Assembly (NCBI RefSeq): GCF_000018785.1
Contig: NC_010163.1
Span: forward strand, 750,001 to 782,000
Direction of reading: 5' to 3'
Length of the DNA: 32,000 bases
Origin: Acholeplasma laidlawii PG-8A
Lineage (GTDB): Bacteria; Bacillota_I; Bacilli_A; Acholeplasmatales; Acholeplasmataceae
This document shows positions 558 to 26,145 of this stretch, piece after piece. The translations under genes and the position numbers were made by a program. Position 1 is the first letter of the stretch. Each line of letters opens with the position of its first letter. The notes under the pieces were generated by a model. The model worked only from the letters and a program-made list of their open reading frames with translations, was not told where the DNA came from and searched no databases.

Positions 558-3500
558 TTAACCTAAATATGCATCTATATGACTATATTTTAGATTTCTA
601 ATATCATCAGCATGTTCACCCAGAATACTATCGCCTTGAATTTTAATACGCTCATTTTGATTGGATAGTGTGTAATGTGTTACATTTAAGTTAAATGTGT
701 CAACATGATGTGGGTTATGGATAGTAATCGTGATATGAGAAAGGAATTTAAAGGATAACCTACCTTCTTTAAAGAAATCCTTTATAACTTTTGGATTCAC
801 TTTAAAAGTTAATTTATTTTCTTTATAACTAAAAGGTTGTTTACCTAGAAACATTAAATACATTAAAGTCATAGCTTCTGATGTCGTACCTGTGAGTCTG
901 GCAACAAAACCCTGACCATGTACTTTTGGATTTGGATTGTTGGATGTAGCAATAAAACTTACATTTTCTAAAGTACTTCTACCATAAACTAAAGGATCCA
1001 TAAAAGGTGGCATACTTGTTTTAATATCTTTGTAAAACTCATCATAAAGACCTGATTTAAACATGCCTATTAAATATTTATAACTCATATGTACAAAAGA
1101 AGACTCACGTTCAAGCCAGCCTTTTGTAAAAGCACGTGCTCGACCAATTTCTAAAGTCTCATCCTCTAAAGATGCAGATGTTTTATATACACCTAAAGTT
1201 TCATCATAAATACCTGATGCTTTTACATGTTGATGTACACTATGAGCATCTATTACATTGAGCATTGATTTTAGATAGTGCGCGGGTGCTTCTAAATAAT
1301 GAGGTAGTGGTCTAACCTTCCAGTTCGTCACATCAATACACTCTAAATTCAAATGAGGATGTCTTAAACCATTTTTTTGATAAGTGGTAGCTTCAAATGT
1401 TAAATAAGTAGGAATTAATCCTTTACCTAGTTCAAATGCATTTTTAATACCCCTATGAATATAGTCATTTAATCGTTCAATCAATGGGATTAATTGGGCT
1501 ATTGTAATATCCACAAATGCATCAGACAGATAGAGGTTTGTTTTTGCATCAAAACTTTCTCTAATGTCTTGTATCTTATCAAATCCATCATCAATATGAT
1601 GAGTTAAGTTCGTAAAAAAATCATATATATCTGATTGAATAGATACAGTTTTAGATTTAAATAGATGACTAAACTCAATTAAGTATTTAAATAATCGAGC
1701 TAAATTTATAGTTTCAGTCGTACCTGATCCAAAAATGGCAGGTAAACCGTTCATTGCATCATTCCAACCAGGTTTTTCGCTATCCATCATTACACCCATA
1801 CCCATTGGGTCTAAACTTGCTGTTTTGATCGTTGCTAAATGTAATAATTTTGAATATAAATTGACTGATACAGTTTTACCGTTTGTAAATTTATGAAAGT
1901 TTGAACCTTGTTTTAAATCTAAAGATTTTACTTTTTCTTTATCTTCATAAAGTCCACCTAATTGACGTGGAAAACCTTCTTTGTTAAGAACATACTTATA
2001 TTTTCTTGGATAAACACTCATTTTTGACTGATAGAATTTAATAGGTTGGTCAAAAAGCATAAAATCTATTTTATCAGGAAAAATTGCTAGATATTGTTCA
2101 ATTAAATCTAGATTATAAATCCAGTGATCTGACCAATAACCTGTTCCAAAGCTACTTTGAGTCGTTTGATCAGTATAATACATGATTAAGTCTAATAATG
2201 TTTGAGGTGAAATGTTAGTTTCTATATTGTTTTCAATAAACATCAATAAAGAGCCTGGAGTAAAAGGCTTTTTAAGATAATCTATGAGTTTATTCTCACC
2301 CTTAACAACATGTTCTAATAATTTATTTTGATACTTTTGATTAAACGTAAATCTTGAGCCTTCAATGGTCAATGGATTGTGTCCATCTAGTTGAATTAAT
2401 TCTAAAAACTGTACTATATTAAAAATACCAGCTTCTTTTACAAAATACACATCATTTCTTCTATTTTGATTTACATCTCTATAACTACCATTACCATGAG
2501 AGTAATATCTTGGTTCTATATAAAAATTATTGTATTCTCTTTCCATATCACCGTGAATTCTAGAATATGTATGGTAAACATGATCTTTATTTAACCCCTT
2601 AAATATATATGGAAAACCACCTCTTAGTAAATTATCTAAGAACGATTGTTTCATATATTGATCAAATAAAGGATAATTCGTCTGTGTATCCATAGGAGCA
2701 ACGAGTTCTTCAATAAATGATTCACTTAACGCTTCAAGTGACTCAAAATAATTAAAATCCCAATGACGTGCAGATTCATTCAATGAATCTAAATTGCTAT
2801 AAGACCCTAGTAATGTATAAAATGTATAAGTTTCATCTTTTCTTAAATGAACCTCATGTGTTGAAAATCCGGAAAGTAGCTGGTTTGTTGATGCTTGATT
2901 TTGACGTATAAACTCATCATATGGCATCTGATTAAATACATGTGGTACTGCAAGTTCATTTTGGTATCCAAAGATGATAGATGAGTCATAAATTGGTTTT
3001 AATCGCTTATGATGTTGGTCCACACTTACATAGAAATTACCTGCTTCTAATGCACTAATTTCTTCTGTATCTTCCGTTGTAGAGCGATTTTTCATAAATG
3101 GAATGTGGTTTTCTTGATTAAATACATCAAACCATGCTACAGCTAAATTTGACATGTTTTTTTGTGCATATAAACCAGTTCCATAGGGCCAGAATGTTGC
3201 TAACCCATCGATGAAGCTTAACTTCATATCTTTAAGTGCTTTAAACTGAACTTTCCTTACTAATCCAGGATACTTTTTCTCAGTTACGTGAAAGTATTTA
3301 ACAGTAGTTTGAACATCATTGTTCGTTTCTTCAATAGATACTTTATTTCTTCCAATGAATAATTTTCTATTGCTATCTGTTGTACCAAAGGGTTCAAAAC
3401 ATTGATCATTAACCTTTAAAAAAGTCCTAAAACCATTTACTGAAGTATTTCTATAACTTAAATTTGCAGGTGTGAAATCTAATATAGCGTGGTCTTTATT

Positions 3501-3662
3501 CTCAATACCAAAAGATGCAATTAATTGACCTCTATTGACATAATAAGTCCACATAGGTACGCCATTTTTACCTGCAATACCTGGTAAAAATGAAGCAAAA
3601 GGTTTTAACTTATGATAGTTTTCAAATATAAATTCTTTTGTTTCCTCATTAAAATATGTCAT
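558..3662 (-). CDS. Large cytoplasmic GH94-clan (GH94/GH149/GH161-like) glycoside phosphorylase-like protein; candidate beta-1,3-oligoglucan phosphorylase
   Basis: The ORF track gives 558..3671, but codon 1 there is TTG. The ATG at 3662 (MTYFNEE...) lies 1 nt after the upstream TAA, so I prefer it. There is no signal peptide. The N-terminus YFNEETKEFIFENY...FLPGIAGKNGVPMWTYYVNRGQ, the internal SYRDVNQN and PGWNDAMNGL motifs, and the C-terminal KLTFKVNPKV parallel the RDxxQD, ADWND and C-terminal-domain motifs of GH94 enzymes and of the 830-aa paralog in this window. Exact family and substrate are not determined. Confidence 0.55.
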   Translation of the reverse strand: MTYFNEETKEFIFENYHKLKPFASFLPGIAGKNGVPMWTYYVNRGQLIASFGIENKDHAILDFTPANLSYRNTSVNGFRTFLKVNDQCFEPFGTTDSNRKLFIGRNKVSIEETNNDVQTTVKYFHVTEKKYPGLVRKVQFKALKDMKLSFIDGLATFWPYGTGLYAQKNMSNLAVAWFDVFNQENHIPFMKNRSTTEDTEEISALEAGNFYVSVDQHHKRLKPIYDSSIIFGYQNELAVPHVFNQMPYDEFIRQNQASTNQLLSGFSTHEVHLRKDETYTFYTLLGSYSNLDSLNESARHWDFNYFESLEALSESFIEELVAPMDTQTNYPLFDQYMKQSFLDNLLRGGFPYIFKGLNKDHVYHTYSRIHGDMEREYNNFYIEPRYYSHGNGSYRDVNQNRRNDVYFVKEAGIFNIVQFLELIQLDGHNPLTIEGSRFTFNQKYQNKLLEHVVKGENKLIDYLKKPFTPGSLLMFIENNIETNISPQTLLDLIMYYTDQTTQSSFGTGYWSDHWIYNLDLIEQYLAIFPDKIDFMLFDQPIKFYQSKMSVYPRKYKYVLNKEGFPRQLGGLYEDKEKVKSLDLKQGSNFHKFTNGKTVSVNLYSKLLHLATIKTASLDPMGMGVMMDSEKPGWNDAMNGLPAIFGSGTTETINLARLFKYLIEFSHLFKSKTVSIQSDIYDFFTNLTHHIDDGFDKIQDIRESFDAKTNLYLSDAFVDITIAQLIPLIERLNDYIHRGIKNAFELGKGLIPTYLTFEATTYQKNGLRHPHLNLECIDVTNWKVRPLPHYLEAPAHYLKSMLNVIDAHSVHQHVKASGIYDETLGVYKTSASLEDETLEIGRARAFTKGWLERESSFVHMSYKYLIGMFKSGLYDEFYKDIKTSMPPFMDPLVYGRSTLENVSFIATSNNPNPKVHGQGFVARLTGTTSEAMTLMYLMFLGKQPFSYKENKLTFKVNPKVIKDFFKEGRLSFKFLSHITITIHNPHHVDTFNLNVTHYTLSNQNERIKIQGDSILGEHADDIRNLKYSHIDAYLG

Positions 3663-3663
3663 A

Positions 3664-4557
3664 TTAATCAATTTCCCTTACTAAATTTTGAATTGTTGGT
3701 GATTGATACACTCTAACAAAATCAATTTCCATTTTGGCATAGCTCAATTCAGGATCTATACCTTGAGCTGCACCCCAATCACCACCTATTGCGATATTTA
3801 ATAATAGATGAAAACGTCGATCAAATGGCCAGTGTCTGTTTTTTGGTATATCAACCAAATTAAAAGGATTATAAGTATAATACACTTCGTTATCAATTGA
3901 AAAAATTATCAAATCTGGAAACCATTCAACTGTATAGGTATGAAAAGCTTCACTTGCAGTTGGAATCACTTTAGAACCACCTTTTTGAGTGCCTATTTTG
4001 TGATTATATGCTTGGGTATGGATACTCGCATGAATACGGTTTTGGTCATAACCTACGTGTTCCATGATATCTATTTCACCACTATTTGGCCAACTACCAT
4101 ACTGCCAATCAGTAGGTAACATCCATATTGCAGGCCACGTTCCGCGACCTGTTGGAAGTTTAGCTCTCACTTCAATCTTACCCCACTTCCAATCACCTTT
4201 ATTTCTGGTGACCATACGTGCTGATGTCCAACTTCCTTTTTCATCTTTTATCGCTTCTATGGTGAGTATGCCATCTTTAACAAAGGCGTTTTGATCACTT
4301 GTGTAATTTTGTAGTTCATTATTTCCCCATCCGTGTCCGCCTACATCATAACCCCATTTATCATCATCAGGTAAACCTTCATAATCAAACTCATCAGACC
4401 ACACCAAAGCATAATCAGTAATATTGTCTTTATCATAAGTATAACCTTCAATTTTAGAGCGTTCTACTACAATGGGTGGTTCATCTTCTCTTTTATCACA
4501 AGCAATTAGCAAGGATGTAAACAATAATACACATAATGCAATCACAGTTTTTTTCAT
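3664..4557 (-). CDS. GH16 endo-beta-1,3(4)-glucanase (laminarinase-type), lipoprotein
   Basis: Carries the GH16 catalytic motif GEIDIMEH (E-x-D-x-x-E). The signal peptide has the lipobox LLIAC. The track start at 4566 is GTG; the ATG at 4557 (MKKTVIALC...) has an AGGTGA SD 5 nt upstream and sits 1 nt after the permease stop. Confidence 0.9.
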   Translation of the reverse strand: MKKTVIALCVLLFTSLLIACDKREDEPPIVVERSKIEGYTYDKDNITDYALVWSDEFDYEGLPDDDKWGYDVGGHGWGNNELQNYTSDQNAFVKDGILTIEAIKDEKGSWTSARMVTRNKGDWKWGKIEVRAKLPTGRGTWPAIWMLPTDWQYGSWPNSGEIDIMEHVGYDQNRIHASIHTQAYNHKIGTQKGGSKVIPTASEAFHTYTVEWFPDLIIFSIDNEVYYTYNPFNLVDIPKNRHWPFDRRFHLLLNIAIGGDWGAAQGIDPELSYAKMEIDFVRVYQSPTIQNLVREID

Positions 4558-4558
4558 G

Positions 4559-5686
4559 TTATTCACCTGTCATTCCGGTACGTTCAATACCTGCAATAAA
4601 TTGCTTTTGTGCAACTATATAAATAATAAATAAAGGTAAGATAGACAAGAATGTTGCTGCAGATTTATAACCTTCGTTAATTAAACCGATACCAACATCA
4701 CCTGGTGCACTATTTGCTTGATCTGCAAATATTGAATCAAATAGACTTAATCTCATGACTACAAGCGGATTACCAGATTGATAATAAATAGTTGCTGTAT
4801 AGATATCATTCCAATTCCAAATAAATGAAAATAGAAATACGATTAAAATAATTGGGACAACTAACTTAACATAAATATGCCAAAATACTTGGAATGAAGA
4901 TGCTCCATCAATTCGTGCTGCTTCATCTAATGTAATTGGAATCATTTTAAAGAAATTATAGAAAATTAATATAAGAATAGCTGAGTTGATACCTTGGCCA
5001 AAAAATGAAAATAGTACTTGAGGAATTAGTGTGGAAAATAACGCTCTACTGAAAAATGAACCTAAGAAATTATTAGCAAATAAAGCATCATAAATAGGAA
5101 TCCAAATATTTTCTTGTATACCGCTTATAATCATAATTCTAGGTACTGTGACCATTGGTAGTGGAATAATGAAGGACACTAATAACATCACAAAGAAGAA
5201 TTTCTTAAACTTAAAATTATATCGTGCAAAAGCAAAGCCTGTAAATGCAGCAATAACTGTTTGAATTAGTGCAAGTGTAGTCATGTTAAATAAGCTTTTA
5301 ATCAAGTTACCTGGATTTGTAAATGTACCTAAAAAACGATCGATAAAACTTAAACCTGGTGCAAACCAAGAAGGTGGTAGTAACTGTAGTACATGATTAG
5401 AAACAACAAAGTTACTAAAAGTTAATCCAGTTGGAATCCATGAAACCTCAGGACTTAATAAGTCCTTTCTCGTCATAAATGAGAGTAAAATCATACGAAT
5501 AATTGGAAATAAAAATACATAACTAATACCAATTAATAATACATAGATGACAAGTTTACCGATAACACCACCACTAGCTTTATGCCCAAATAAGTATTTT
5601 CGTATTTTACTTATAGAAATGTGTGAGGTGACTTTTTTAAATAGTAATTTAATTTTACCAAATAGGTCATTCATATATTTAATCAT
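4559..5686 (-). CDS. Carbohydrate ABC transporter permease (pair 1, second subunit), unusually long
   Basis: Polytopic membrane protein with the EAA loop LDEAARIDGASSFQVFWHIY. Its start overlaps the upstream stop (ATGA at 5683-5686). At 375 aa it is longer than typical MalG-like permeases of about 280 aa. Confidence 0.85.
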   Translation of the reverse strand: MIKYMNDLFGKIKLLFKKVTSHISISKIRKYLFGHKASGGVIGKLVIYVLLIGISYVFLFPIIRMILLSFMTRKDLLSPEVSWIPTGLTFSNFVVSNHVLQLLPPSWFAPGLSFIDRFLGTFTNPGNLIKSLFNMTTLALIQTVIAAFTGFAFARYNFKFKKFFFVMLLVSFIIPLPMVTVPRIMIISGIQENIWIPIYDALFANNFLGSFFSRALFSTLIPQVLFSFFGQGINSAILILIFYNFFKMIPITLDEAARIDGASSFQVFWHIYVKLVVPIILIVFLFSFIWNWNDIYTATIYYQSGNPLVVMRLSLFDSIFADQANSAPGDVGIGLINEGYKSAATFLSILPLFIIYIVAQKQFIAGIERTGMTGE

Positions 5687-6702: not shown

Positions 6703-9225
6703 TTAAATAACAAGCTTATAGTTAAGCTTTTCAACGGTTATACCTTTATAGATTACAGTATCTTCTGTGTAGTTAATTACAACTTCATAGCCGTTTGCAT
6801 AGGTATTTACAATAACACCTGGTTGTAGTACGCTTCTACCTACCCACACCTCATTCATCACACTTGCGAGTGCACTGTTGACATCATTATAGATATCTTT
6901 TATCATCTCTTCATATAATGTAAATTCAGTAGAATAATAGTTAGATGAATGTGTTGCAATTAATTTATAGGCAGGATCGTGTGTTAATACAAATGATGGG
7001 AATGTATTGTAGTCTATCATTCTTAATACATCTTTTTGTTGGTAGAATGAGAAGTTTGAATAGGTCGCATAATTCTCCATAGCACCATTCAATACCAATT
7101 GTAAGAATGGTACAGTATCAGTTTCAACAAGGTGTTGAGAACTAAATAGGGGTGTACTTAAATGTCTATCAACGTATGGCCATAAATACATATTAGGCAT
7201 GATGGCATTAATCTTTGTTGATGCATCAATCTTAGTAAAAGTATCTTCATAAAGTTTTATTGTATCTGTAACAGTAGTAATATTTTCATTACTTCTATAA
7301 TGGCTATACAAGAGGTTTGAAATGCCATCATAAGTATAACTTTCAAAGCCCATTTTAGAGGTCTTATTATAAGTATTTAAGACCCATGATGATGCTCTAT
7401 TAGGTGTAGCATAATACTGCTTTTCTACCGGGCCAGTTGTTCTTCTATAGTTATATTCACTATACCAACCTCCGATATGTTTCATCGCATTATCTATTAA
7501 GAACATATTTTCAGAGTAAATTGTTGTATAGTCTTGATGTAAGGATACATCGATACCAAGTTCATTTAGATACTTAACTGTTTGAGTAAATTTAGATTTA
7601 CTACCTATTGAATCACTCCAATTAGGGCTTGATTTTCGACCGAGAGTTACACCACCTTTTTGGTAACCGAGTAACCCTGAATTAATATTATAGACACCTT
7701 CATTTTGTAATGTTTCTAAAATCTTTTTTACTTCATCAATTGTTGTAACAACAACATCTTCTGTTCCGATTAATGCATTTTTTGCATCACTCATTAAGAA
7801 GTCAATTCTCATTGGAATATTTATAAACTGTTCATTTTTATAACTTAATACGCCTGATTCATGTAAATAATCACGATATTTAATTGCCATACCGACATAA
7901 TCTGCGCGATAAGGGTTATCTAGAGTTGTACCATCTCCTGCAAGCATATAAAAATGTTGATGGATGTCAAAGTGATTTCTTTCCTCAAATAAGGACTGAT
8001 AGCTTGCTCCAGACTGATTATAAACTTGAGTATAGACTCGATTATATAGATATCTTGAATGTGCAATCATATAATCAGTTAAGTTATAGGCATCACTTGA
8101 GTTAGATGGTCTAGCATATATTTGCATATACTCATCACCACTACTAGTGTGTGATAAAAATGCTGCTTGAGTTCCATCGCCATAAGAGATACCAAATACT
8201 GGCATAGATGGATCTTTATGAGGTATAAAATTGGGTTCTGTGCGGCTATGTGATGGTAATTGTGCAATATCTTGTCCATATACATGACCAGTATAACCAT
8301 TTAATGAGGATTGGTAATCTGTAAAACGGATTAATGCGCCACTTCCATCTGGAACGAATATGTAGCCTTCATTTCTAGGTTTATTGACTACCGTGTCCCA
8401 CTTTACTTCTTTTTCTGTTATTGTGCCTTCTTCGGATTCAAAGGTTTCAGTATGTACACTTGGTAAAGAAATCTTACCACCGTAAGAACCCATAAAAGGT
8501 GCGATGGAGATTGATCCAATTAAATCTGTGTCATCTCCCTCAATTTCGCTATCTCTAATTTCAATAGAAAATCCATCTAAAGTTAAATGTAGATGTACCT
8601 TAACCTCTACATCAATGGCTTTAAATTTAAAATCAAGTCTAAAATGGTTAGGATCGTTGTTTACATTCTTTAAAACGTCCGTATTCACAGAATTAGATAC
8701 ACGTTCTTGAACTGTTTCTATTTCAGGATTGTTTAAATCTGGTGCAATAATGAAGTTCTTTGTACTACTTCCTGTTTGTGTTAAAGGACGATTTGGACTT
8801 AAGCGATTGAGATATTCAATCATGATTAAAGAGTTTGCAATACCTTCTCTAGAGTTGTTCATTTGTTCCTCTAAAGGTTTTGCAATAGCTAATATGTCTT
8901 CATCTGATGCACCTGGATTATTTTTAATAAATAATTCTACAGTACTTTCAATGTAACCATCATAGTCATGATCAATACCACTTTTCCAAGTAAAACCGTT
9001 TCTTTTATCATAGACAGCAAATATACCATTATGTTTTTTATAATAGTATTCAAAGTTGGCATTTTCTTGAATGAGTGTAAAGCCATCCTTATTTAGTGGT
9101 ACGATTACGACTTCATCAGGTGGCATTTTAGTATCTTTACTAGATTCAATATATACCGCATTCACCGTGAAACCAAGTAATATAACGATACAGATTACTA
9201 GAATAGTTCTTTTAATTGAAAACAT
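6703..9225 (-). CDS. 840-aa membrane-anchored extracytoplasmic protein of unknown function (I suspect a DUF5696-type family; unverified)
   Basis: Has a single N-terminal TM (ILVICIVILLGFTVNAVYI) and then about 810 aa that are predicted to lie outside. I see no catalytic signature I can name. A GGAG SD lies upstream, and the start overlaps the upstream stop by 14 nt. The family assignment comes from memory of similar gene neighbourhoods, not from a search. Confidence 0.6.
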   Translation of the reverse strand: MFSIKRTILVICIVILLGFTVNAVYIESSKDTKMPPDEVVIVPLNKDGFTLIQENANFEYYYKKHNGIFAVYDKRNGFTWKSGIDHDYDGYIESTVELFIKNNPGASDEDILAIAKPLEEQMNNSREGIANSLIMIEYLNRLSPNRPLTQTGSSTKNFIIAPDLNNPEIETVQERVSNSVNTDVLKNVNNDPNHFRLDFKFKAIDVEVKVHLHLTLDGFSIEIRDSEIEGDDTDLIGSISIAPFMGSYGGKISLPSVHTETFESEEGTITEKEVKWDTVVNKPRNEGYIFVPDGSGALIRFTDYQSSLNGYTGHVYGQDIAQLPSHSRTEPNFIPHKDPSMPVFGISYGDGTQAAFLSHTSSGDEYMQIYARPSNSSDAYNLTDYMIAHSRYLYNRVYTQVYNQSGASYQSLFEERNHFDIHQHFYMLAGDGTTLDNPYRADYVGMAIKYRDYLHESGVLSYKNEQFINIPMRIDFLMSDAKNALIGTEDVVVTTIDEVKKILETLQNEGVYNINSGLLGYQKGGVTLGRKSSPNWSDSIGSKSKFTQTVKYLNELGIDVSLHQDYTTIYSENMFLIDNAMKHIGGWYSEYNYRRTTGPVEKQYYATPNRASSWVLNTYNKTSKMGFESYTYDGISNLLYSHYRSNENITTVTDTIKLYEDTFTKIDASTKINAIMPNMYLWPYVDRHLSTPLFSSQHLVETDTVPFLQLVLNGAMENYATYSNFSFYQQKDVLRMIDYNTFPSFVLTHDPAYKLIATHSSNYYSTEFTLYEEMIKDIYNDVNSALASVMNEVWVGRSVLQPGVIVNTYANGYEVVINYTEDTVIYKGITVEKLNYKLVI

Positions 9226-11254
9226 TTCTAATCAACTCCTTAATAATTGCATCTAAGAATAGATAGAGTTGTTGCCACATGGTGATGATGATGATTAAGA
9301 CAACAACAATGATAATTGCAAACAGTAAACTCATAAATATACTTCGTATGGTTTCCTTACCAGAATATTCATGTATTTCACTAATGCCTAGATAAATTAA
9401 TATGAACGACCAAATGGTGCCAAAAGTCATTATAAAATCTAAGAAAAAGACTTCATTATATGTAAGTACGTGTGATAGTAGTGTAACGAGTAATAAAGCT
9501 AAGAATAAAGGTCCTAGAGCATATACAAACATCATAAAGATCTGTTTAAGTTTACCGATACCATCATTAATTGATGTATCTAAATAATTACAGATTACAA
9601 ACAATAAGGTTACTGCTGTAAACCCTAAAACAAGTGCAGTGATATCAATATCTTCTACTAATATGTATTGATAGATGAACCCTTTAGATGTATTAAAGAA
9701 AATAAAGGTGATAAAGATAGCTACATATAAAATGAGTGTGGCTCTAAAAGAACCTTGATGTCCATGTTTTAAGTCTTCAAAACTATCGATTGGTTTTCTC
9801 ATGACTTTAAACATGAAACTTAATTCTCTTAAGATAGGTTTATCAAATGATTTTTTAATCGGTTGTGTGAATTGAGTTACTTTACCTGTTTTTTTATCTA
9901 CTTTATGTAATACTAAATTACTAAAGTAAATAAAGATAAGTGCAATAATAAATATACCTAAATAACTTTGTATCACAAGATTTCTAACTTCCCAGGATGC
10001 TTCTGAATAACCTGTACGATTACCTGCAAGTTCAAAATGATGCATTGCAGATTCATAATCCTGTAACTGTAGATAAGATTTTGCAATGTTATTATGAGCA
10101 ATCACAGACATTTGATTTAAATTAAGTACTTCGCTCCATGCATCAATAGCTTCTTGGTATAATCTGTCTTCATATAGATTAATAGCTCTATATATTTCTT
10201 TTGCATATGCGGTTGGTTCAAAGGATTGTAGAAATGATTTTGCATCATCTAAGGCAAATATAACACCATCATCTCGTACTGCAATCGAAGAAAGTCTTTG
10301 GAAGACACCAGAGATATCTTGATTTGAGGAGATATCAGAGTTACTTGCACCAAAATAGAAAATAAAATCACCGGTTTGATCATATACAAATATAGCACCT
10401 GATTGCATACCGGCATATACGATACCTTCTTTGTCAACATAAATATCTCTTGCATCATCAAAAGATATCATACGTTTGAAAATATTACCGCCTTGTGTGT
10501 TATGTTTTTTAACAGCATTGAAATAAGTACTCATCGTTGTAGTATAAACCATCGAGTTATCGTCGATAAATATGCTTGAGAATGTTTGTGGACTTCTCGC
10601 AAGTAAATTATCAAACTGTTCTGGTGTTAGTATGAGTTTTTGAAATTGTTGAACGACTGAAAGTCTGATTTTATTTGTTGTGAAAAATCCTAAGAATTCA
10701 CCAATGTTAGATAATTGGATAATACCGTTTGAAACACCTTCACCATAGATATATAAATTTCCGCGATTATCCACTGCGATTTTACTTGGTTCAAAACTCG
10801 TTTCACCAAATGATAAGGAATCCGGACGTTCAAATTTTTCAATAAAAGTACCATCAAGATCAAATCTAAAAACTGCTTTAGCTGCACTATCTGCAACATA
10901 TAATCCACGACTGGAAATATATAAACCTTTAGGTGCTAAAAATTCAGGATAGGTCAGTTCGAATAATAACTCATTTGTTACTGAGTCATATTTTAAAATA
11001 CGCATATTTCCAGTATCGGCTATCCATAAAAACCCATCATCATCAAACATCATATCTTCTGGTTTGTTTAAATTTAATTCCATTGTAGTTCTTAGTGGTA
11101 AATACGCATCTTGAGTTCTTACAAACTCGCCCTTCGCATTTAAAGTCAACGTATAACTTGTAGCTGCTGATGCAAATACTGGTGTGGCGTATATGACTAT
11201 GAATGCAACTATGAATAGTAAAATTGTAATTATTCTTTTAGTATTTTTCATCAT
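9212..11254 (-). CDS. Signal peptide - NHL-type beta-propeller - TPR - TM - Yip1-like 5-TM domain fusion protein
   Basis: Signal peptide ending VFASAAT. Repeated blade motifs are present (DGFLWIADTGNMRILKYD, RGLYVADSAAKAVFRFD, RGNLYIYGEGVSNGIIQL, EGIVYAGMQSGAIFVYD, DGVIFALDDAKSFLQSF). A TPR-like segment (YQEAIDAWSEVLNLN...AKSYLQLQDYESAMHHFELAG) follows. Then come one TM, a basic linker and five further TM helices in a Yip1-like arrangement. Confidence 0.7.
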   Translation of the reverse strand: MMKNTKRIITILLFIVAFIVIYATPVFASAATSYTLTLNAKGEFVRTQDAYLPLRTTMELNLNKPEDMMFDDDGFLWIADTGNMRILKYDSVTNELLFELTYPEFLAPKGLYISSRGLYVADSAAKAVFRFDLDGTFIEKFERPDSLSFGETSFEPSKIAVDNRGNLYIYGEGVSNGIIQLSNIGEFLGFFTTNKIRLSVVQQFQKLILTPEQFDNLLARSPQTFSSIFIDDNSMVYTTTMSTYFNAVKKHNTQGGNIFKRMISFDDARDIYVDKEGIVYAGMQSGAIFVYDQTGDFIFYFGASNSDISSNQDISGVFQRLSSIAVRDDGVIFALDDAKSFLQSFEPTAYAKEIYRAINLYEDRLYQEAIDAWSEVLNLNQMSVIAHNNIAKSYLQLQDYESAMHHFELAGNRTGYSEASWEVRNLVIQSYLGIFIIALIFIYFSNLVLHKVDKKTGKVTQFTQPIKKSFDKPILRELSFMFKVMRKPIDSFEDLKHGHQGSFRATLILYVAIFITFIFFNTSKGFIYQYILVEDIDITALVLGFTAVTLLFVICNYLDTSINDGIGKLKQIFMMFVYALGPLFLALLLVTLLSHVLTYNEVFFLDFIMTFGTIWSFILIYLGISEIHEYSGKETIRSIFMSLLFAIIIVVVLIIIITMWQQLYLFLDAIIKELIRNVFN

Positions 11255-12150: not shown

Positions 12151-13080
12151 TTAATCTTTTTCCGCAAATAAGCGGTATGCTATTTTAGAAAATACCCATA
12201 TTAGTAAAAGTAAAACTACTGATAATGCCGCAGCATAGCCCATTTCATAGCGAATAAATCCAAAATCATCAATATGGTTTGTGATTAGCTGTGCTGCATT
12301 TTGAGGTGTTGGATTAGATCCAGATAATGCAACGCCAATATATCCGTTTGTGAAAGTTGCCACGATCGCCATAACAGCTCCGAATAACATTTGAGGTTTC
12401 ATCATTGGTATTGTTACATAGACAACTTCTTGAAATTTATTACGAATCCCTTCAATATAAGCTGCCTCATAAAGTTCTTCATTCCCATTTAATATACCAG
12501 CCAACATTGCTAAAAACCCTACACCCATACTACTCCATAGAGCAACTACGATAATAATTGGCATTAAATATTGTGGTGATTGTAGAAACTGTATCGGTCG
12601 GTCCAATATATTCATATCCATCAAAATAGCATTAATATAACCGGATTCATCACCTGAAAAAAGTGTACGCCAAACAACTGAAATAAATACTCCACCTACC
12701 ATGGAAGGTGAATAAACTGCCAGTGCAATGATCGTTCTTGGTACTACTTGTATTTGTGCGAGCATCCATGCAAGTAGGAAAGATAGCATGTAGCCACCTG
12801 GTCCAACAATTAGTGAAAACATTAATGTATTTGGTAAAATATATTTTAAAAATACTGGGTCTTGTGTAAATATATTAATGAAATTTGTTAATCCCAAGTA
12901 TTGAGGCATTTCAATTACATTAAAGGATGTTAAAGATAGGTAAATTGCAATTGCTACAGGAAATGCTATAAATAAACTAAATAACAAGACATAGGGTAGT
13001 AACATGAAAAATACTGTGAGGCTATCTTTAAACTTTGCATTTTTGAAAAATACATTTTTACGCTTAATCGTTTGATCCAT
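12151..13080 (-). CDS. Carbohydrate ABC transporter permease (pair 2, MalF/LplB-like)
   Basis: EAA-like loop [23 protein letters not shown]. The track start is 13098, but the ATG at 13080 (MDQTIKRK...) is preceded by an AGGAGG SD at 6 nt spacing, so I prefer it. It overlaps the upstream stop (13064) by 17 nt. Confidence 0.85.
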
Positions 13081-16054
13081 GATAGCCTCCTGATGCATCT
13101 AACATTTGATTTCTAACCCATGTAATATCTCTAATTACATATGGTTTTATTAGGTTTCCTTCATTATCAAGAAAACCAAATTCAATCATTTTCTTTCGCA
13201 TTTCTCTGTTTATTAAAATGGTATATCTGTCTACAGCAATACCTGTAGGTGTTCCATCAAACACTGCTGTATTCCATATATCTGAAATCGATCTTTCTAA
13301 CATATATTGACCAGGTGTTCTCGGTACATCTATTAACCATTTAATTTGTTCTAAAATTACTTCTTTATCTTTTTCGGAAAAAGGTGATGCCATAAATGCA
13401 TTAATATTACCAGAAATCCATGCATAAGTAGGTCCATAAGTAGACTGTAAATTAAATGAAAATTGTGATTGAGTTTCAGTTGACATCCACCACTTTAAAA
13501 AATCCCATGCATCATCAGGTTGATCAGTTTCATTCATAATCATACCTGCTGTACCATTAGCAATATAGTGACGGTTCGTACCAGCTGCTTCAGTAGTTAT
13601 ACTAGGATAAGGTGCTATTTCCCACATCCCAGTTAATTCAGGTGCAGCATTTTTAATAAGTTGATAAGTTCCAAAGTCCGCGATTCCAATTGGTAGTGTT
13701 GCATATCTAAATGAATTATAAAATGAAACTACTTGCTCAGGTAAAGCATAGTTTGTAAATAATTGATTTAAGAAAGTTAAACCTTGAACGGCTTCTTTTT
13801 CATTAATACTTGTTCTTAAGCCATCTTCAGAGTAAATATTACCACCAAATTGATATATAAACCCAGAGGTTTGATAAAACCACTTAATTGCAGTTCCACC
13901 TGCAATTGGATGGTAGAAATTCATACCATACTTTTGTAATTCAGGTAGAATTTGAATCACTTCTTCCCATGTATCTGGTACCATAAAATTTAAAGCATCA
14001 AATATATCTTTTCTATACATGACAACATTAAAGTCCAAAGTTTCAGGTAATGCATAAGCTTTATCATTTAAAATATAAGGAACAAATGCGCCTGGTGCAA
14101 ATTGTGATGCGAATTCCCAATAATCATCAAAACTGGTTAAGTCATACGCTGAATTTCTAATTGCTAAGTCAAAAGGCATATAACTTGCTAGTCCTAGTGC
14201 AACATCCGGCTGTTGATTTGCAGCAGATGCCATAACAAGTTTATTTGCATCAGGCATTACTGAAATCTTAACTTGAATACCAGTTTGAGGTGTAAATGTT
14301 TGATCTGCCATCTTTTGCATCATATCTACATAAGTTATGGGTCTGTTTACCCAAACATCTAAAACACCATCTTCTTTAGTTAAGGCATATTTATTCGAAC
14401 TAAAACTTGCGATAAATGATTGTGTTCCAGCATAAAGTGATTCAAAAATATTCGGATTTGCCTTTCTCAATCGCGTGTTATTATATAAATGCAATTGATT
14501 CAAATACATTTGTTGATTATTTAGTGTATCTAAAATATCACCTAAAAATTGATTAATAGAGCCAGTTCCCCCAACAAGATCCTCTAAATATAATGGCAAT
14601 CTATTGTAATCTTTATAGATGTTTTCTGCTCTTGATAATGATTTTTGAAGGTTACTAATTGTTGCTGATTTTGCACCATTTGGTGCAAACAAACTGAGTT
14701 CATCAATACTAGCCTTTAGAAGTAAGATATAACTTTCCAAATATGCCTTAGATTCAGGCATTTGTTCACTAAATCTCCAAGTTCTATTCTTATCAACTTC
14801 TTTACCTGTAATTTTTCTGATTTCCAAAGTAAATGTATTGATATGATCTATAAGCATTTGTATGTTTCTAACAGCTTCTTGAACGGGTTCGCTTTCCGCT
14901 CTTAAAGTAATTGTATTTTTACCTGATTGGAAATAAAAATAGTAATCTGTTTGTTCATTGCCCAATGTTTCTACGCGCCAATTGCCTGCTTTTGTAGATT
15001 TAAACTGGTATGCTCTTACTTCATTAAACGGAATCTGTCCATTAATTTTAATAGATCTAAAAACAGGAAAATCAGCTTTAGGATTAGAATATCTAAATGC
15101 CAGTTTATAAAGGCCTGATTTTTCTACGTTGACTTCATAGGTTAAAGATTGACCTGGACGTTGCCAAGTTCTTCCGTCAATTACATTTAACTTTTTATAA
15201 ACTGGGTCAAAAGGTAAAACACTAGGATTTACCTCACTGTATGCTTGTACATAACTTGAGTTTTTATAACTATAATTGGTTGCATCTATATCAATAATTC
15301 CATCAATAATCTCATAGTTGTTTTGGTTAATATATGTATCGTAGTCGATTTGTAAAACAGGTTTAAATACATCAATATCTCCTATTATAAATTTAGAGGA
15401 GGATGTATTTTCAATGGTTAGTTGATTTAAACCTTGTTTAAAATAAAATAAGAGTGGATCAATAGAAATATAGGTATTATTATATGCAGCTACATACTGC
15501 CAATCATCCATAATTATTTGATTTGGCAACACTTCATCACCATAGCGATCTGTCAGATAATTTTTTGACTCATCTTGCCAAATGATAGGTAGTTCGATAG
15601 TCTGCATTTCTTGATAATAACTTTCATCATTAATTTTTAGTGCAATAGTAATTTGATTCAGTGTAGCATTCGATACTTTATAGTTCATACCTACATGATA
15701 ATAACCAGCTTCTTGTATTTCTATTTCGTAAGTAGCTATTTTATCTTTTGTCATTATCAAACTATATTGCATATTCTCTGAATCTATTAATGCATCAGAG
15801 TTTGTTAAACTTGCTGTAATTGTACTTAAGCCATAATCAACATTTTGTTGATGATCGCTTAAATAATCGACATACGTATATCTTGCATTATTAATGGATG
15901 CATTTAATAGTGTTTTTGTTTCTGAAACTAAATCATTTGTTATAGTTCCATCTGGCTTATAAATTGAAGTACCTCTTGTAAAGTAAATGATAGCAAAAAC
16001 TAATAAAACAGTCGCTAAACCCCAAACAATAGATCGTTTAATTTTACCCATCAT
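13064..16054 (-). CDS. Membrane-anchored tandem CBM-like / helical linker / solute-binding-protein fusion (996 aa)
   Basis: N-terminal TM ([17 protein letters not shown]). Two internally repeated beta-sandwich-like modules follow: aa ~95-230 ([21 protein letters not shown]...[14 protein letters not shown]) and aa ~250-390 ([21 protein letters not shown]...[17 protein letters not shown]). A helical stretch of about 170 aa comes next. From about aa 560 there is a family-1-type sugar SBP domain ([21 protein letters not shown]...). A GGGAGG SD lies upstream. Confidence 0.75.
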
Positions 16055-16133: not shown

Positions 16134-17765
16134 TTATTTAAAATCAGCGTCTGTCTTGCCGTAATGTGTTTTAAGTCCGGCTTTCAACTTAGCCCATTCA
16201 TCAGCAAATCTTTGGTTTACCTGTGTATTCCATTCAGGCAACTTAGCTAATACAGCATTTGTAAATCCAGCATCTGTACGACGTGGAGAAGTAGCTTCAG
16301 GGTTACCAGTTAAGACGGTTGGTAAGTTAAAGTTATTCCATTCATATAGAATTTCAGATCTTACACCATCTTTATCGTAATACCAAGGGTAAGCTTTATC
16401 AGAGACGTCAATAACTTTACCTGATGAGAATACTTCCATCATATAGTGGAAACCAGGGAATTGTTCTTTATCTGCAAGCATTGTATGATTTTCTGCAGAG
16501 AACCAAATATCCATTTGACGTTCAAATGCAGCACCAGTTACTAGAGGTACAGAGTCATTCATAGCAGTTTTAACTGTAGCACCATTTGTATACATTTGGT
16601 CAGCTCTTGCTTGCCATGCACGGTCATCACCAATCCAGAATGATGCAAATGTATAAGCAATTTGTAATTTATTAAATTCTTCATCAGATAATTCTGAATT
16701 ATTATCATCTAAAGCATAATTATGAATTGCAAGTGGGTCAAGTACTACACCTACTGTATTATCAACGTAATCTGTACTAGGTCTTGGATAAATATCCCAA
16801 TTGTTTGATTGAACAGCACCCCAATGTAATGGATCAGGGTTTGCAGCATCACCTAACATCCAAGGATCTCCATCAAGTGTTAATAATGCACCATTTTTAA
16901 AGAAGTTGAAACTCCACCAACCATTAGCATCCATAAATGGAGCCATTGGGTCGCCTACTTTATCAAATTGTGGCCATACTGAGTGTTCTGACCATTCAGC
17001 GATATAAGGAATTAATGATCTAACTTGTGCAGAATTAAGATCAATATATGGATCATTTCCAGTATGATTAACAAGTGATTGTGCCATTGTAGTTGATCCT
17101 GTGAATATAAAACTCTTTGGAGTATCCATAGAACCATACCAAGAATTAGCTACAGAATGGCTAACAAAGTCTGTATATTCATCAATTGTCCAATCTGGAT
17201 CAGGAATATCAATATTGTTATCATCTGCTAATTGCTTATTGATATATACGCCCCAAGGTTGTAAGAATTGTGGTAAACCAGCTTGAACTCCATAGTAATT
17301 CATCATGCTCATAATACCTTTATTAAATGATTTATACATAGGGTCATCACTAAATACAGATAAGTCTGATACCATACCACGTTGAACTTCACCAGGTAAA
17401 TCTGTTGATGCCCATATATCAATTGTTTTACCATGTTCTAAAATGAAGTTTTCTCTAAACTGAGACCAACTCACACCATCATCATGTGGACCATTGACTT
17501 TAGTGATAACATTGATCTTAACATTTGGATAATCTTTGTTAAACTCTTTAGCTACTGCATAAATAGTTGCAGCATTTTGAGAGACTAACTGATCAGGTGT
17601 TAGATTTTTCTTACCGATATCTTGGTAGAATTCTCCGTCTCCTGACCACAACATAATTGTAATTTCACCACTAGCCGCTTTATCTAATCCTTTATAACTA
17701 GGACCACAAGCTACTAATAGTAATACTACCATTGCAAGTAAACTTGAAACAAAAATCTTTTTCAT
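16134..17765 (-). CDS. Extracellular sugar-binding lipoprotein (ABC transporter SBP, long ~540-aa class)
   Basis: Signal peptide with the lipobox LLLVAC. The composition is aromatic- and Trp-rich, as in SBPs. It is the first gene after a promoter, with an AGGAGGA SD at 17771-17777. Confidence 0.85.
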   Translation of the reverse strand: MKKIFVSSLLAMVVLLLVACGPSYKGLDKAASGEITIMLWSGDGEFYQDIGKKNLTPDQLVSQNAATIYAVAKEFNKDYPNVKINVITKVNGPHDDGVSWSQFRENFILEHGKTIDIWASTDLPGEVQRGMVSDLSVFSDDPMYKSFNKGIMSMMNYYGVQAGLPQFLQPWGVYINKQLADDNNIDIPDPDWTIDEYTDFVSHSVANSWYGSMDTPKSFIFTGSTTMAQSLVNHTGNDPYIDLNSAQVRSLIPYIAEWSEHSVWPQFDKVGDPMAPFMDANGWWSFNFFKNGALLTLDGDPWMLGDAANPDPLHWGAVQSNNWDIYPRPSTDYVDNTVGVVLDPLAIHNYALDDNNSELSDEEFNKLQIAYTFASFWIGDDRAWQARADQMYTNGATVKTAMNDSVPLVTGAAFERQMDIWFSAENHTMLADKEQFPGFHYMMEVFSSGKVIDVSDKAYPWYYDKDGVRSEILYEWNNFNLPTVLTGNPEATSPRRTDAGFTNAVLAKLPEWNTQVNQRFADEWAKLKAGLKTHYGKTDADFK

Positions 17766-17938: not shown

Positions 17939-19420
17939 TTAATTTTCGTTACTAATATTTTCGTTTAAAACAAATGTTGTAGTTGCTTTTGCTGGTAGTT
18001 TATAATTCATTTGGCTACCATTTATATCTAAACTAAACATCATTGAATTAGAAGATTTATTATGTACCACGACTGTAATACTACCATCAGGGTTTAAAAA
18101 TGCTGTGTTTAGTAAATTTGCATTACTTGTTTTACTATCTATTCTATATGCTCCAACCTCTACAAATTTAGAAAAATGTCCGATCATATAGTATTCTTCA
18201 TTTTTAATAACCTCTGAAGTTTCACTATGAATAGTTAAAATGCCACGGCAATTTTGGCACCCACCATTGATAGGTCCATTGTTTTCATTTAAGGCAATGT
18301 TCCACATCAATACACCTTTAGCGCCGCGATTTAGAGAACCCATAAAAATATTTTCCATATTCCACGATATATTGTCTCCAAAATTCGTAGCCCATAAACC
18401 ACCGGATATTTCTGTGAACCAAATACCTTTATCAGGAAATATGTTACCTAATCTTGAAGTTTCTGATACATTTCCACCATAACCATGTAATGCAACCCCT
18501 GCAATATATTGATTTGCTTTACTATTTAGTACAGTTATTGGGTAGTCCATTCGATCCCAATTATGGTCATATGCCATGATTAATGTATCGATATTGGCTT
18601 CATTAAATTGGATGCCCATAGACTCAATTAAATTTATTTGTTGATCTGGCAACATTTTCATTGTAGGATAAGTGTTTGATTCATGAAGTGGTTCATTTTG
18701 CGGTGTAACTGCATATATATCGATGCCTTGAAGCTTCATAGCTTCAATATATTTAACAAAATATTGTGCATAGACATCGATGTACTTATCCAGTAAACTA
18801 CCACCATTAAGGTGTTTATTATCTTTCATCCAAGCTGGTGCACTCCATGGAGATGCCATAATAAATAGGTCGTTATTTCTTATGAGTGCTTCTTTTAAAA
18901 CTGGTATAAGATGTTGCATCTCTCTATCGATAGAAAAGTTATTTAATGCTAAGTCTTCTATGTTACTTGGCGTATCATTATACGTATAATTGTCTAAGGA
19001 AAAGTCAGATGCACCTATAGTAAGTCGCATAAATGACATATTTAACCCTTCTTTGTTAAATAGTTCATCTAATACATTATGTTTATCATTTTCATCCAAA
19101 TTATTAATGACTAAAGCACTAGATTCTGTCATCGCTGCTCCAAAACCATCAATTACTTGGTATTTTATACTAGGATCAATATTGATTTTTGTGTACTCTG
19201 AATCTAAATCTATAGTGGTATTTGAAGCCTCTTCTTTTTTAAGTAATTTGCTTTTATCAGCCCATGTTGTAAAGCTATCCACTGAATAAGTTTTTTTCAC
19301 GATAGGGGGTTCTCCATTATTCGTATTATCACATGCAATAAGCATCATTAAACATATACACACTAAGCATAACAAGAAGATACGCTTATGTATCTGTGTG
19401 CTAGCTTGTAACTTTAACAT
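17939..19420 (-). CDS. GH30 family glycosidase (beta-1,6-glucanase / glucosylceramidase-like), lipoprotein
   Basis: GH30 landmarks are present: IDGFGAAMTESSA near the N-terminus, TPQNEP (acid/base Glu) and GIWFTEISGG (nucleophile Glu). The lipobox is MLIAC. The ATG at 19420 overlaps the upstream gene by 20 nt. Confidence 0.85.
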   Translation of the reverse strand: MLKLQASTQIHKRIFLLCLVCICLMMLIACDNTNNGEPPIVKKTYSVDSFTTWADKSKLLKKEEASNTTIDLDSEYTKINIDPSIKYQVIDGFGAAMTESSALVINNLDENDKHNVLDELFNKEGLNMSFMRLTIGASDFSLDNYTYNDTPSNIEDLALNNFSIDREMQHLIPVLKEALIRNNDLFIMASPWSAPAWMKDNKHLNGGSLLDKYIDVYAQYFVKYIEAMKLQGIDIYAVTPQNEPLHESNTYPTMKMLPDQQINLIESMGIQFNEANIDTLIMAYDHNWDRMDYPITVLNSKANQYIAGVALHGYGGNVSETSRLGNIFPDKGIWFTEISGGLWATNFGDNISWNMENIFMGSLNRGAKGVLMWNIALNENNGPINGGCQNCRGILTIHSETSEVIKNEEYYMIGHFSKFVEVGAYRIDSKTSNANLLNTAFLNPDGSITVVVHNKSSNSMMFSLDINGSQMNYKLPAKATTTFVLNENISNEN

Positions 19421-22988: not shown

Positions 22989-22993
22989 ATATT

Positions 22994-26059: not shown

Positions 26060-26082
26060 GTCATATCTCCATATCAATAATT

Positions 26083-26142: not shown

Positions 26143-26145
26143 AAA

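Follow-up and report, generated by a model that had tools for sequence, protein, structure and literature searches.

In Bacillus, the Yip1-family protein YknW reportedly modulates how the ABC transporter YknWXYZ assembles (PMC4887032), a real precedent for a Yip1-type accessory protein, as the original prediction had supposed. Here, we analysed a 32,000-nucleotide stretch of the Acholeplasma laidlawii PG-8A genome (the window), which encodes an NHL-TPR-Yip1 membrane protein. Like YknW, this is a polytopic membrane protein with a Yip1 domain encoded in an ABC transporter operon. However, the analogy is loose. While YknYZ represent a MacB-type exporter acting with a membrane-fusion protein, the cassette described here comprises two MalFG-type (type I) importer pairs. 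In addition, YknW, a relative at the level of the Pfam family, has no ectodomain, whereas the NHL-TPR-Yip1 protein carries a propeller and TPR of ~400 aa and an extra TM helix. Eukaryotic Yip1/YIPF proteins share PF04893 and a five-helix bundle after a cytoplasmic N-terminal segment, and they work via contacts with other membrane proteins (PMC5898192). In contrast, they belong to ER-Golgi vesicle traffic and Rab GTPases, a context with no equivalent in the cassette, and lack a propeller/TPR ectodomain.

The extracellular part resembles other NHL propellers in fold (target TM-score ~0.75), and its best natural solved relative by sequence is the six-bladed propeller that Mycobacterium tuberculosis PknD (1rwi), a membrane-anchored protein, exposes outside the cell. 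But in PknD the propeller leads through one TM helix into a Ser/Thr kinase, whereas the membrane part here is a Yip1 bundle without an output domain. The surrounding transporter genes resemble CUT1 importers (MalFGK2-MalE, UgpAEC and AlgM1M2SS-AlgQ of Sphingomonas A1) in their MalF/MalG-like permeases with EAA loops and their SBPs. Known CUT1 systems contain one permease pair and only soluble or lipid-anchored SBPs, whereas the cassette has two pairs, an anchored SBP of ~1000 aa, a Yip1 protein and a DUF5696 protein. The GH94/GH161 laminarin locus of A. laidlawii was already drawn by Kuhaudomlarp et al. 2019 (PMC6484121), who read it as two neighbouring clusters with a common SBP and left two genes in between unmentioned in the text. 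In contrast to that reading, the block forms one unit, which counts eight genes here and seven in distant relatives.

Domain architecture and topology

The gene is a complete, single 680-codon ORF (680 aa + stop) on the minus strand, running from 11254 to 9212; all features given below lie on this strand, which the original prediction had left unspecified. The protein is predicted to consist of a signal peptide, a six-bladed NHL propeller, two TPR, a helix running into TM1, a basic linker and a 5-TM Yip1 bundle. This order matches the original prediction and was borne out by HMMs and an AlphaFold2 model (pLDDT 84.4, pTM 0.70), from which each of the previously proposed residue boundaries deviates by a few residues at most. 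Both NHL (PF01436, aa 62-89, E=1e-9, 38.3 bits versus a cut-off of 20) and Yip1 (PF04893, aa 482-653, E=2e-14, 54.2 bits versus 28.6) exceeded their Pfam cut-offs, the latter covering profile positions 1-172 of 173. Single TPR models stayed slightly under theirs (25.9 versus 27), and the TPR were recognized by profile and model instead. Searching the PDB with a family profile built from 40 sequences retrieved the NHL sensor domain of PknD (1rwi, E=5e-25), Pizza proteins and consensus TPR proteins (E 1e-17 to 1e-23). Foldseek returned six-bladed NHL domains (TRIM, Brat, Pizza) at E~1e-13 with target TM-scores of 0.72-0.78. The domain architecture is as claimed.

The signal peptide (aa 1-31, 11162..11254) is indicated by hydropathy, by conserved A28/S29/A31 followed by an invariant TSYT, and by a modelled helix (aa 2-21) preceding a low-confidence stretch (aa 22-31). 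A cleavable peptide ending at aa 29 had been proposed; the peptide stands but more likely ends at A31, the likely SPase I site being A-S-A-A|T (family motif A-S-x-A|TSYT). The extracellular propeller (aa 32-347, 10214..11161; Pfam, PDB profile, AlphaFold2, Foldseek) has its modelled strands within aa 35-347 and a helical insert at aa 200-217. Two TPR motifs (aa 348-412, 10019..10213; sub-threshold Pfam, PDB profile, AlphaFold2), modelled as four helices at aa 349-410, are predicted to sit directly on the outer membrane face. A juxtamembrane helix continuous with TM1 (aa 413-449, 9908..10018) is supported by conservation, by hydropathy, which places TM1 at aa 426-444, and by the model, where a single long helix (aa 413-456) includes TM1. 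The basic cytoplasmic linker (aa 450-501, 9752..9907) contains modelled helices at aa 458-496. Counted over aa 445-501, it has 12 K/R versus 6 D/E; the ectodomain is acidic (53 D/E versus 33 K/R). Thus, the proposed topology fits both hydropathy and charge. The Yip1 bundle (aa 502-658, 9281..9751; Pfam, AlphaFold2, conservation) is modelled with TM helices at aa 503-522, 538-563, 569-594, 599-628 and 632-658. An amphipathic C-terminal helix (aa 659-680 + stop, 9212..9280; modelled at aa 660-679) is conserved, with a near-invariant E673, and predicted to lie outside the cell.

A query made of TM1, linker and Yip1 bundle (the C-terminal 256 aa) retrieved 1267 representatives (50% identity level). 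Among the best 150 of these, 90 were longer than 600 aa and each aligned over most or all of the query length; a few had additional ectodomain insertions. Conservation was computed over 98 sequences with a median identity of 31%. It peaked in two motifs at the outer membrane surface and in one cytoplasmic loop: YSEASWEVR (aa 416-424), the best-conserved motif family-wide, the outer turn LSHVLTYNE (aa 593-601) and the loop DTSINDGIG (aa 559-567), the latter two within the Yip1 bundle. The propeller invariants were the structural NHL Gly/Asp/Pro/Phe positions. Such a pattern would be expected of an interface between proteins rather than of an active site.

The cassette and its setting in A. laidlawii

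As originally noted, the gene is flanked by two ABC permease pairs, P1/P2 (11260-13098) and P3/P4 (4559-6690). All four permeases have EAA loops: P1 (12151-13098) and P3 (5683-6690) are MalF/UgpA-like, P2 (11260-12135) is MalG/UgpE-like, and P4 (4559-5686) is MalG-like with AlgM2 as best solved relative. Upstream of P1 lies a giant membrane-anchored SBP of 996 aa (13064..16054), whose SBP domain (aa ~579-866) is preceded by an N-terminal extension of ~550 aa and which has full-length orthologs in distant cassettes. A lipoprotein SBP of 543 aa (16134..17765) belongs to the eight-gene block of close relatives, outside the universal core.

The NHL-TPR-Yip1 ORF shares its last 14 nt with the beginning of the DUF5696 gene (6703..9225, 840 aa, Pfam E=2e-150), the neighbour of the target gene in every locus examined, and a stop/start overlap of 14-17 nt is conserved in the window and in loci L001, L002, L084 and L085. 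This translationally coupled downstream partner was absent from the original prediction. Its AlphaFold2 model (pLDDT 85.9, pTM 0.86) predicts an N-terminal TM anchor, a β-sandwich, a (β/α)8 barrel and a C-terminal β-sandwich, and Foldseek aligned it with the GH129 entries 5opq and 5wzn (E=2e-25). The DUF5696 protein is thus modelled as glycosidase-like, anchored in the membrane and similar to GH129 and GH101.

If homologues were scattered in unrelated contexts, a link to the importer would be doubtful. We found the gene in one common block in 80 of 80 species-level genomes (50 loci complete, 30 contig-truncated but consistent, no exceptions), and this strict synteny supports the functional tie to an ABC importer that had been suggested. 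The block reads SBP (~540 aa), giant anchored SBP (~990 aa), MalF-like P1, MalG-like P2, NHL/TPR/Yip1, DUF5696, MalF-like P3 and MalG-like P4, and occurs in Acholeplasmataceae, Haloplasmataceae, Erysipelotrichaceae, Lachnospiraceae, Christensenellales and Oscillospiraceae. In relatives at 24-28% identity, the seven genes from the giant SBP to P4 are retained in one order, each orthologous to its counterpart (22-41% identity), while the flanking enzymes are different or absent. Variants were observed: P3 and P4 are fused into one gene in L084, the two four-gene half-blocks are permuted in another variant, and in Halanaerobiales the genes from NHL-TPR-Yip1 to P4 relocate as one block. In L088 the protein is naturally split within the linker, with an NHL-TPR gene (ending at query aa ~455) and a Yip1 gene (beginning at aa ~476) adjacent in the cassette. 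In a mirror-tree analysis, the correlations of the NHL-TPR-Yip1 protein were highest for the giant SBP (r=0.94) and P2 (0.93), but once background was removed the method missed P1-P2, a known pair. The cassette has no conserved regulator gene; one of LacI type is present in some loci only. We found no literature on the cassette.

In A. laidlawii, gene content places the cassette inside a laminarin (β-1,3/1,6-glucan) operon with GH16, GH30, GH3, GH94 and GH161 genes. The substrate-specific head (17939..26077) encodes GH3 (22994-26077), GH94 of the laminaribiose-phosphorylase type (20496-22988; PMC6484121), a cupin of 132 aa (20108-20506), GH16 (19401-20111) and a GH30 lipoprotein (17939-19420). 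The likewise substrate-specific tail (558..4566) encodes a GH16 lipoprotein (3664-4566) and a GH161-type protein of 1037 aa (558-3671), a putative β-1,3-glucan phosphorylase (PMC6484121). The importer of A. laidlawii is predicted to be dedicated to laminarin-type β-glucan; for some other cassettes, we only infer a glycan cargo because no CAZymes are encoded nearby. The original suggestion that the protein might hold the glycan or the hydrolases needs correcting here: GH16, GH30 and GH3 proteins, or β-glucan as such, are not constant partners, whereas DUF5696, the giant SBP and the two permease pairs accompany the gene throughout. Judged by gene content, holding β-glucan hydrolase lipoproteins cannot be the general function, because cassettes at ~25% identity carry other flanking enzymes or none.

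Proposed role and alternatives

With slightly better than even confidence, we propose that the NHL-TPR-Yip1 protein is a dedicated, non-catalytic scaffold or assembly subunit that would be physically associated with a conserved two-translocon ABC glycan importer. Its Yip1 bundle would dock sideways in the membrane on one or both permease dimers, like YknW on YknXYZ. The TPR/juxtamembrane surface close to the membrane, the most conserved part, and the propeller might jointly keep the tethered extracellular partners, DUF5696 and/or the giant SBP, positioned above the mouths of the translocons, so that glycan capture and trimming at the surface would be coupled to import. An ATPase gene was not found in the locus, and energy might be supplied by an MsmX-type ATPase that is shared and encoded outside it. 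The cassette suggests that Gram-positive-type bacteria have a kind of multi-part machine for sugar uptake that has not been described before.

The propeller might instead be lectin-like and, with or without the TPR, bind polysaccharide and present it to anchored enzymes and SBPs, with Yip1 as a mere anchor. It is extracellular and part of an acidic ectodomain, its surfaces are less conserved than the juxtamembrane region, as if specificity followed the substrate, some family members gave weak tachylectin-like, SBBP-like or SGL-like propeller matches, and every other extracellular part of the operon handles glycans. However, one TM helix would suffice as an anchor, whereas the 5-TM Yip1 with its conserved cytoplasmic and outer loops is retained throughout, including where it forms a gene of its own; no CBM or lectin family reached its Pfam threshold, and the ~550-aa extension of the giant SBP could already perform capture. 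We therefore consider such a receptor rather unlikely as the whole explanation. It is compatible with a scaffold, which could be an incomplete description if the propeller itself binds glycan. A transient membrane chaperone that inserts or pairs the four permeases and their anchored partners, without becoming a stable subunit, would agree with the strict synteny, with YknW as a modulator of complex assembly (PMC4887032) and with eukaryotic Yip1 proteins acting via other membrane proteins (PMC5898192). But a conserved 400-aa ectodomain is hard to reconcile with a purely intramembrane chaperone, and translational coupling to DUF5696 suggests stoichiometric production, which makes this role distinctly improbable.

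We give little credence to a sensor, which had been mentioned as an option and in which the propeller would detect an extracellular ligand and signal through the membrane domain to the transporter or operon. By sequence profile, no natural (non-designed) solved structure comes closer than the PknD propeller, and the loop at aa 559-567 is conserved, yet the cytoplasmic parts amount to a 57-aa linker and short loops without kinase, HAMP, GGDEF, DNA-binding or other output domain, and no regulator gene accompanies the cassette throughout. Hardly credible at all is a propeller acting as lactonase or lyase, despite the database names 'sugar lactone lactonase YvrE' and 'streptogramin lyase', sub-threshold Pfam matches to SGL (20.9 bits versus 26.3) and SSL_N, and streptogramin B lyase at rank 46 of the fold matches. 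Among the 98 sequences, the residues conserved across the propeller are canonical structural NHL positions with no conserved His/Glu/Asn metal-site set, and the top fold matches are NHL domains without enzymatic function.

Domain architecture of the NHL/TPR/Yip1 protein

The interval 9212-11254 of the window constitutes one open reading frame of 680 codons on the minus strand; its plus-strand translation is riddled with stops. Pfam analysis of the encoded protein (hereafter NHLYip) revealed a Yip1 domain (PF04893, COG2881) at aa 482-653 (E=2e-14, 54.2 bits against a cut-off of 28.6), which covers positions 1-172 of the 173-position profile and is also matched by distant family members. The NHL repeat (PF01436) scored above threshold as well (E=1e-9, 38.3 bits, cut-off 20), and several TPR models fell slightly below their cut-offs on this sequence alone (25.9 versus 27 bits for TPR_2). 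Searched against the PDB, a family profile built from 40 sequences retrieved the NHL sensor domain of PknD (E=5e-25) and consensus TPR proteins (E values from 1e-17 to 1e-23). PknD and Pizza structures together spanned E values from 5e-25 to 1.5e-52, the Pizza propellers being derived from the PknD NHL domain.

The same alignment was fed to AlphaFold2 (pLDDT 84.4, pTM 0.70). The resulting model starts with a signal helix, followed by propeller strands at aa 35-347 that include a small helical insert (pLDDT mostly 84-95) and by four helices at aa 349-410, corresponding to two TPR repeats only. A single unbroken helix (aa 413-456) then runs into TM1 and is succeeded by cytoplasmic helices, the five Yip1 transmembrane helices (aa 503-522, 538-563, 569-594, 599-628 and 632-658) and a C-terminal helix. 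Using Foldseek, we found the model closest to the six-bladed NHL domains of TRIM2, TRIM71, Brat and Pizza6 (target TM-score 0.72-0.78, E~1e-13), so that model and fold comparison together describe a closed propeller of six blades. For the TPR region, the family profile supplied the HMM match and the model the paired antiparallel helices. The five-helix bundle after a cytoplasmic segment, as expected of Yip1 proteins, was recovered by AlphaFold2, hydropathy and the positive-inside rule alike. Hydropathy and charge further suggest that the ectodomain faces outwards and the basic linker inwards, and that the five helices leave the C-terminus outside.

Since Pfam, profile, AlphaFold2, Foldseek and hydropathy concur, the order of signal peptide, NHL blades, TPR, TM1, linker and Yip1 bundle given in the original prediction proved correct to within a few residues, although no strand had been stated there. 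A signal peptide is indeed present, but its end had been placed at aa 29; cleavage is more likely predicted after A31, where the conserved motif A-S-x-A↓TSYT sits.

The gene cluster around NHLYip and its counterparts in other genomes

Every gene between 558 and 26077 lies on the minus strand of the window (GC ~31%), densely packed and frequently overlapping. The window is A. laidlawii DNA: strain 8195 of this species shares the locus at 99% identity, and the DUF5696 protein has a 100% identical counterpart in an A. laidlawii entry. Taken in transcriptional order, the genes encode a GH3 protein (22994-26077, 1027 aa), a GH94 protein of the laminaribiose-phosphorylase type (20496-22988), a 132-aa cupin (20108-20506), a GH16 protein (19401-20111), a GH30 lipoprotein (17939-19420), a 543-aa SBP lipoprotein (16134-17765), a TM-anchored solute-binding protein of 996 aa (giant SBP, 13064-16054), the permeases P1 (MalF-like, 12151-13098) and P2 (MalG-like, 11260-12135), NHLYip, a TM-anchored DUF5696 protein (6703-9225, Pfam E=2e-150), the second permease pair P3 (MalF-like, 5683-6690) and P4 (MalG-like, 4559-5686), a GH16 lipoprotein (3664-4566) and a GH161-type protein of 1037 aa (558-3671). 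The GH3 protein has a predicted TTG start codon and a permuted domain order, with the GH3 C-terminal domain at aa 37-270, an Fn3-like domain at aa 324-399 and the N-terminal catalytic domain at aa 522-779. The cupin, encoded between the GH16 and GH94 genes, gave a weak WbuC-type match and is conserved, at 55-85% identity, in A. laidlawii strain 8195 as well as in A. oculi.

All four permeases matched BPD_transp_1, and the EAA motif was legible in each. They resemble UgpA/UgpE/MalG and AlgM2/SugB/MalG proteins and are accompanied by two SBP_bac_1 proteins. That is, MalF/MalG-type transmembrane domains with EAA loops and an SBP, the hallmarks of CUT1 (type I) importers, occur together here. The cassette has no cognate ATPase gene: no ABC_tran domain was detected in those ORFs of the window that have 100 aa or more or in the 15-gene locus 558-26077, and an ABC ATPase gene was absent from every related cassette examined. 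The ATPase for both permease pairs would have to come from another locus. MsmX-type ATPases are shared among CUT1 systems. For the A. laidlawii locus, the shared ATPase was also remarked upon by Kuhaudomlarp et al. (PMC6484121), who drew the locus as two adjoining clusters (GH94 and GH161) possibly sharing an SBP; the two middle genes, encoding NHLYip and DUF5696, go unmentioned in their text. P3 of the window ends in a Lys/Glu-rich, highly charged cytoplasmic tail of ~55 aa (5683-5850, minus strand). Lachnospiraceae P3 orthologs are correspondingly shorter (285-299 aa versus 335), so the tail is seemingly absent there.

At least 681 full-length NHLYip homologs were found in Acholeplasma, Haloplasma and many Clostridia, and nearly all of the best 120 measured 675-690 aa. 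Scanning one genome per species yielded 391 relatives. Among the best 80 loci, 50 contained a complete eight-gene block (SBP of ~540 aa, SBP of ~990 aa, P1, P2, NHLYip, DUF5696, P3, P4) with no difference in gene order or orientation; the remaining 30 were cut by contig ends yet consistent, and none deviated. Within the 50 complete loci, the block was followed by a GH16 gene in 40 and a GH161-type gene in 33. A reverse scan from DUF5696 recovered the same block. Since all 80 loci agree with one another and with the reverse scan, homologs are not scattered over unrelated contexts, and the tie to an ABC importer postulated in the original prediction held. NHLYip is obligatorily co-inherited with two MalFG-type pairs, the giant SBP and the glycoside hydrolase-like anchored protein, and the cassette is phylogenetically deep (at least 391 species genomes).

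For a deep search, the C-terminal 256 aa (TM1, linker and Yip1 bundle) were compared with 1.84 billion cluster representatives, which gave 1267 matches, 767 of them below 1e-10. Ninety of the best 150 exceeded 600 aa, and all of these aligned over most or all of the query; a few carried extra ectodomain insertions, and those sampled showed NHL, TPR and Yip1 signatures. The cassette is represented in hundreds of 50%-identity protein clusters in Mycoplasmatota and Bacillota. Variants of 780-955 aa differ only by an enlarged ectodomain, and among the longer members searched, none had the Yip1 protein joined to a permease, an SBP or DUF5696. Members at 24-28% identity keep the seven-gene core (giant SBP to P4), which by BLAST is orthologous position by position, the giant SBP over its full length and P1 to P1 and P2 to P2. 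One such cassette has NagA/NagB-type, oxidoreductase and GH5 genes on its flanks. On three contigs of spore formers (L087, L089 and L091), the seven genes lie at ~4.7-17.4 kb among housekeeping and SpoVA genes, with neither the small SBP nor CAZyme neighbours.

Partner proteins and natural rearrangements

The DUF5696 gene starts 14-17 nt before the end of the NHLYip stop codon in close relatives and abuts or overlaps P3 at its own end. No relative of this 840-aa protein was found in the PDB by single-sequence or profile search; only fold comparison succeeded. In the AlphaFold2 model (pLDDT 85.9, pTM 0.86), an N-terminal TM anchor leads into a large β-sandwich, which is followed by a (β/α)8 barrel and, at the C-terminus, a second β-sandwich. 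The nearest Foldseek neighbours of the model were the GH129 entries ZgGH129 and NagBb (target TM-score ~0.70 at E=2e-25), ahead of GH101, GH36 and GH31. Residues D293, D319, D/E475, N678 and N724 are kept at ~22% identity, and other acidic positions vary. We found no literature on DUF5696, which on its modelled fold may either represent a new family of glycoside hydrolases or be a pseudo-enzyme.

In the giant SBP, an N-terminal TM anchor and an extension of ~550 aa precede the SBP domain. No PDB relative of this extension was found, and its only domain hints, CBM35 and Golvesin_C, remained below threshold. Orthologs reach 1152 aa, some of them without any Pfam signal.

Three loci display rearranged cassettes. 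In L088 (10001-12147), NHLYip is split within its cytoplasmic linker into adjacent NHL-TPR-TM1 (493 aa) and Yip1 (207 aa) genes occupying the same slot; ectodomain and Yip1 bundle are therefore separable while both stay in the cassette. In L084 (12906-15500), one fused gene encodes P3 and P4 as a permease of 864 aa, and DUF5696 is enlarged to ~950-967 aa in this lineage. On the Halanaerobiales contig L090 (1797-14022), the block NHLYip-DUF5696-P3-P4 precedes the block that begins with SBP, giant SBP and P1. As the half-blocks are permuted as units, the cassette may consist of two functional halves, one made up of giant SBP, P1 and P2 and the other of NHLYip, DUF5696, P3 and P4. In mirror-tree analysis of 49 complete loci, NHLYip showed its strongest correlations with the giant SBP and with P2. 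These are tentative, as background removal brought back P3-P4 but not the positive control P1-P2.

Proposed role and alternatives

Source databases catalogue NHLYip as a 'YIP1 family protein' or misname it a lactonase or lyase. We aligned 98 diverse family members (median identity 31%). The top-conserved segment was the juxtamembrane helix YSEASWEVR (aa 416-424), immediately outside TM1; the outer turn between TM4 and TM5 (LSHVLTYNE, aa 593-601), the cytoplasmic TM3-TM4 loop (DTSINDGIG, aa 559-567) and the canonical NHL blade motifs were also among the best-conserved segments. Propeller positions conserved in at least 95% of the sequences were structural NHL Gly, Asp, Pro and Phe, and the family-wide conserved residues were G110, D122, P156, G177, F187, G295, F301, G316 and D336. 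No catalytic-looking cluster was seen in the propeller across the 98 sequences, and the SGL profile stayed below threshold (20.9 bits against 26.3). Given the conserved membrane-surface segments, the missing catalytic set and the SGL score, the pattern is more readily explained by conserved contacts between proteins at the membrane surface than by enzymatic activity. A lactonase or lyase, as the source names imply, is thus hard to credit and was dropped as the leading reading; neither HMM scores nor residue sets identified an SMP-30/gluconolactonase ('YvrE') or a streptogramin lyase. A sensor is suggested by the likeness of the propeller to PknD, but beyond the ectodomain there is only Yip1, the cytoplasmic parts amount to a 57-aa linker and short loops, and no signalling output domain was present; we consider this role very unlikely.

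On balance, we slightly favour a non-catalytic scaffold or assembly subunit. By analogy with YknW, the Yip1 protein of YknWXYZ that modulates complex assembly (PMC4887032), the Yip1 bundle may dock onto the permease transmembrane domains, and TPR and propeller would hold DUF5696, the giant SBP or both over the translocons. Co-encoding of NHLYip with an ABC transporter is strictly conserved. However, YknW belongs to a MacB-type exporter and not to a type I importer, and is a small Yip1-only protein, whereas NHLYip has 680 aa, an ectodomain of ~400 aa and an extra TM helix; a stand-alone Yip1 protein of the YknW kind occurs only in the split variant L088. The A. laidlawii substrate would be a laminarin-type β-glucan, judging by the flanking GH16, GH30, GH3, GH94 and GH161 genes and the characterised laminaribiose phosphorylase, and energy would presumably come from a shared MsmX-type ATPase. 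A lectin-like glycan receptor is compatible with such a scaffold, yet as the role of NHLYip itself we hold it to be improbable; a merely transient assembly factor appears less probable still. A bolder and doubtful reading is a previously unrecognised class of ABC importer supercomplex, in which the Yip1 bundle would bridge two MalFG translocons, P1P2 being fed by the giant SBP and P3P4 directly by the anchored DUF5696 enzyme held by propeller and TPR, an enzyme-coupled import without classical SBP. It would fit the minimal cassettes, since these contain two permease pairs but a single SBP.

ABC sugar importers count as well understood, each with a single SBP, a pair of permeases and a dimeric ATPase. 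The cassette adds a second pair, an anchored SBP of ~1000 aa, DUF5696 and a propeller-TPR-Yip1 protein. While the single domains are known, we came across no description of the whole cassette in the literature that could be searched, nor of its double permease pair, giant SBP, GH129-like DUF5696 and propeller-TPR-Yip1 protein; literature searches for combinations of Yip1, NHL and ABC or of NHL, laminarin, ABC and GH16 found none. If its parts form a single machine, the Sus surface capture-and-import logic of Bacteroidota would have a counterpart in Gram-positive bacteria. Bacterial Yip1 proteins would gain a defined role, a new glycoside hydrolase family would probably be defined, and the laminaribiose-phosphorylase locus of A. 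laidlawii would have to be re-read as one operon instead of two clusters.

Predicted promoter and terminator sites suggest an operon of ~25 kb with an internal promoter. Site counts in these scans were no higher than in shuffled controls; plausibly placed were only a terminator/promoter pair upstream of GH3 and an extended -10 site upstream of the 543-aa SBP gene. The former (region 26106-26178) consists of a strong terminator-like hairpin with a 14-bp stem on the minus strand, after a DsbA-like gene, and a promoter-like TTGCAA-16-TATAAT site right upstream of the GH3 start; the promoter-like extended -10 site lies at 17808-17836 on the minus strand.
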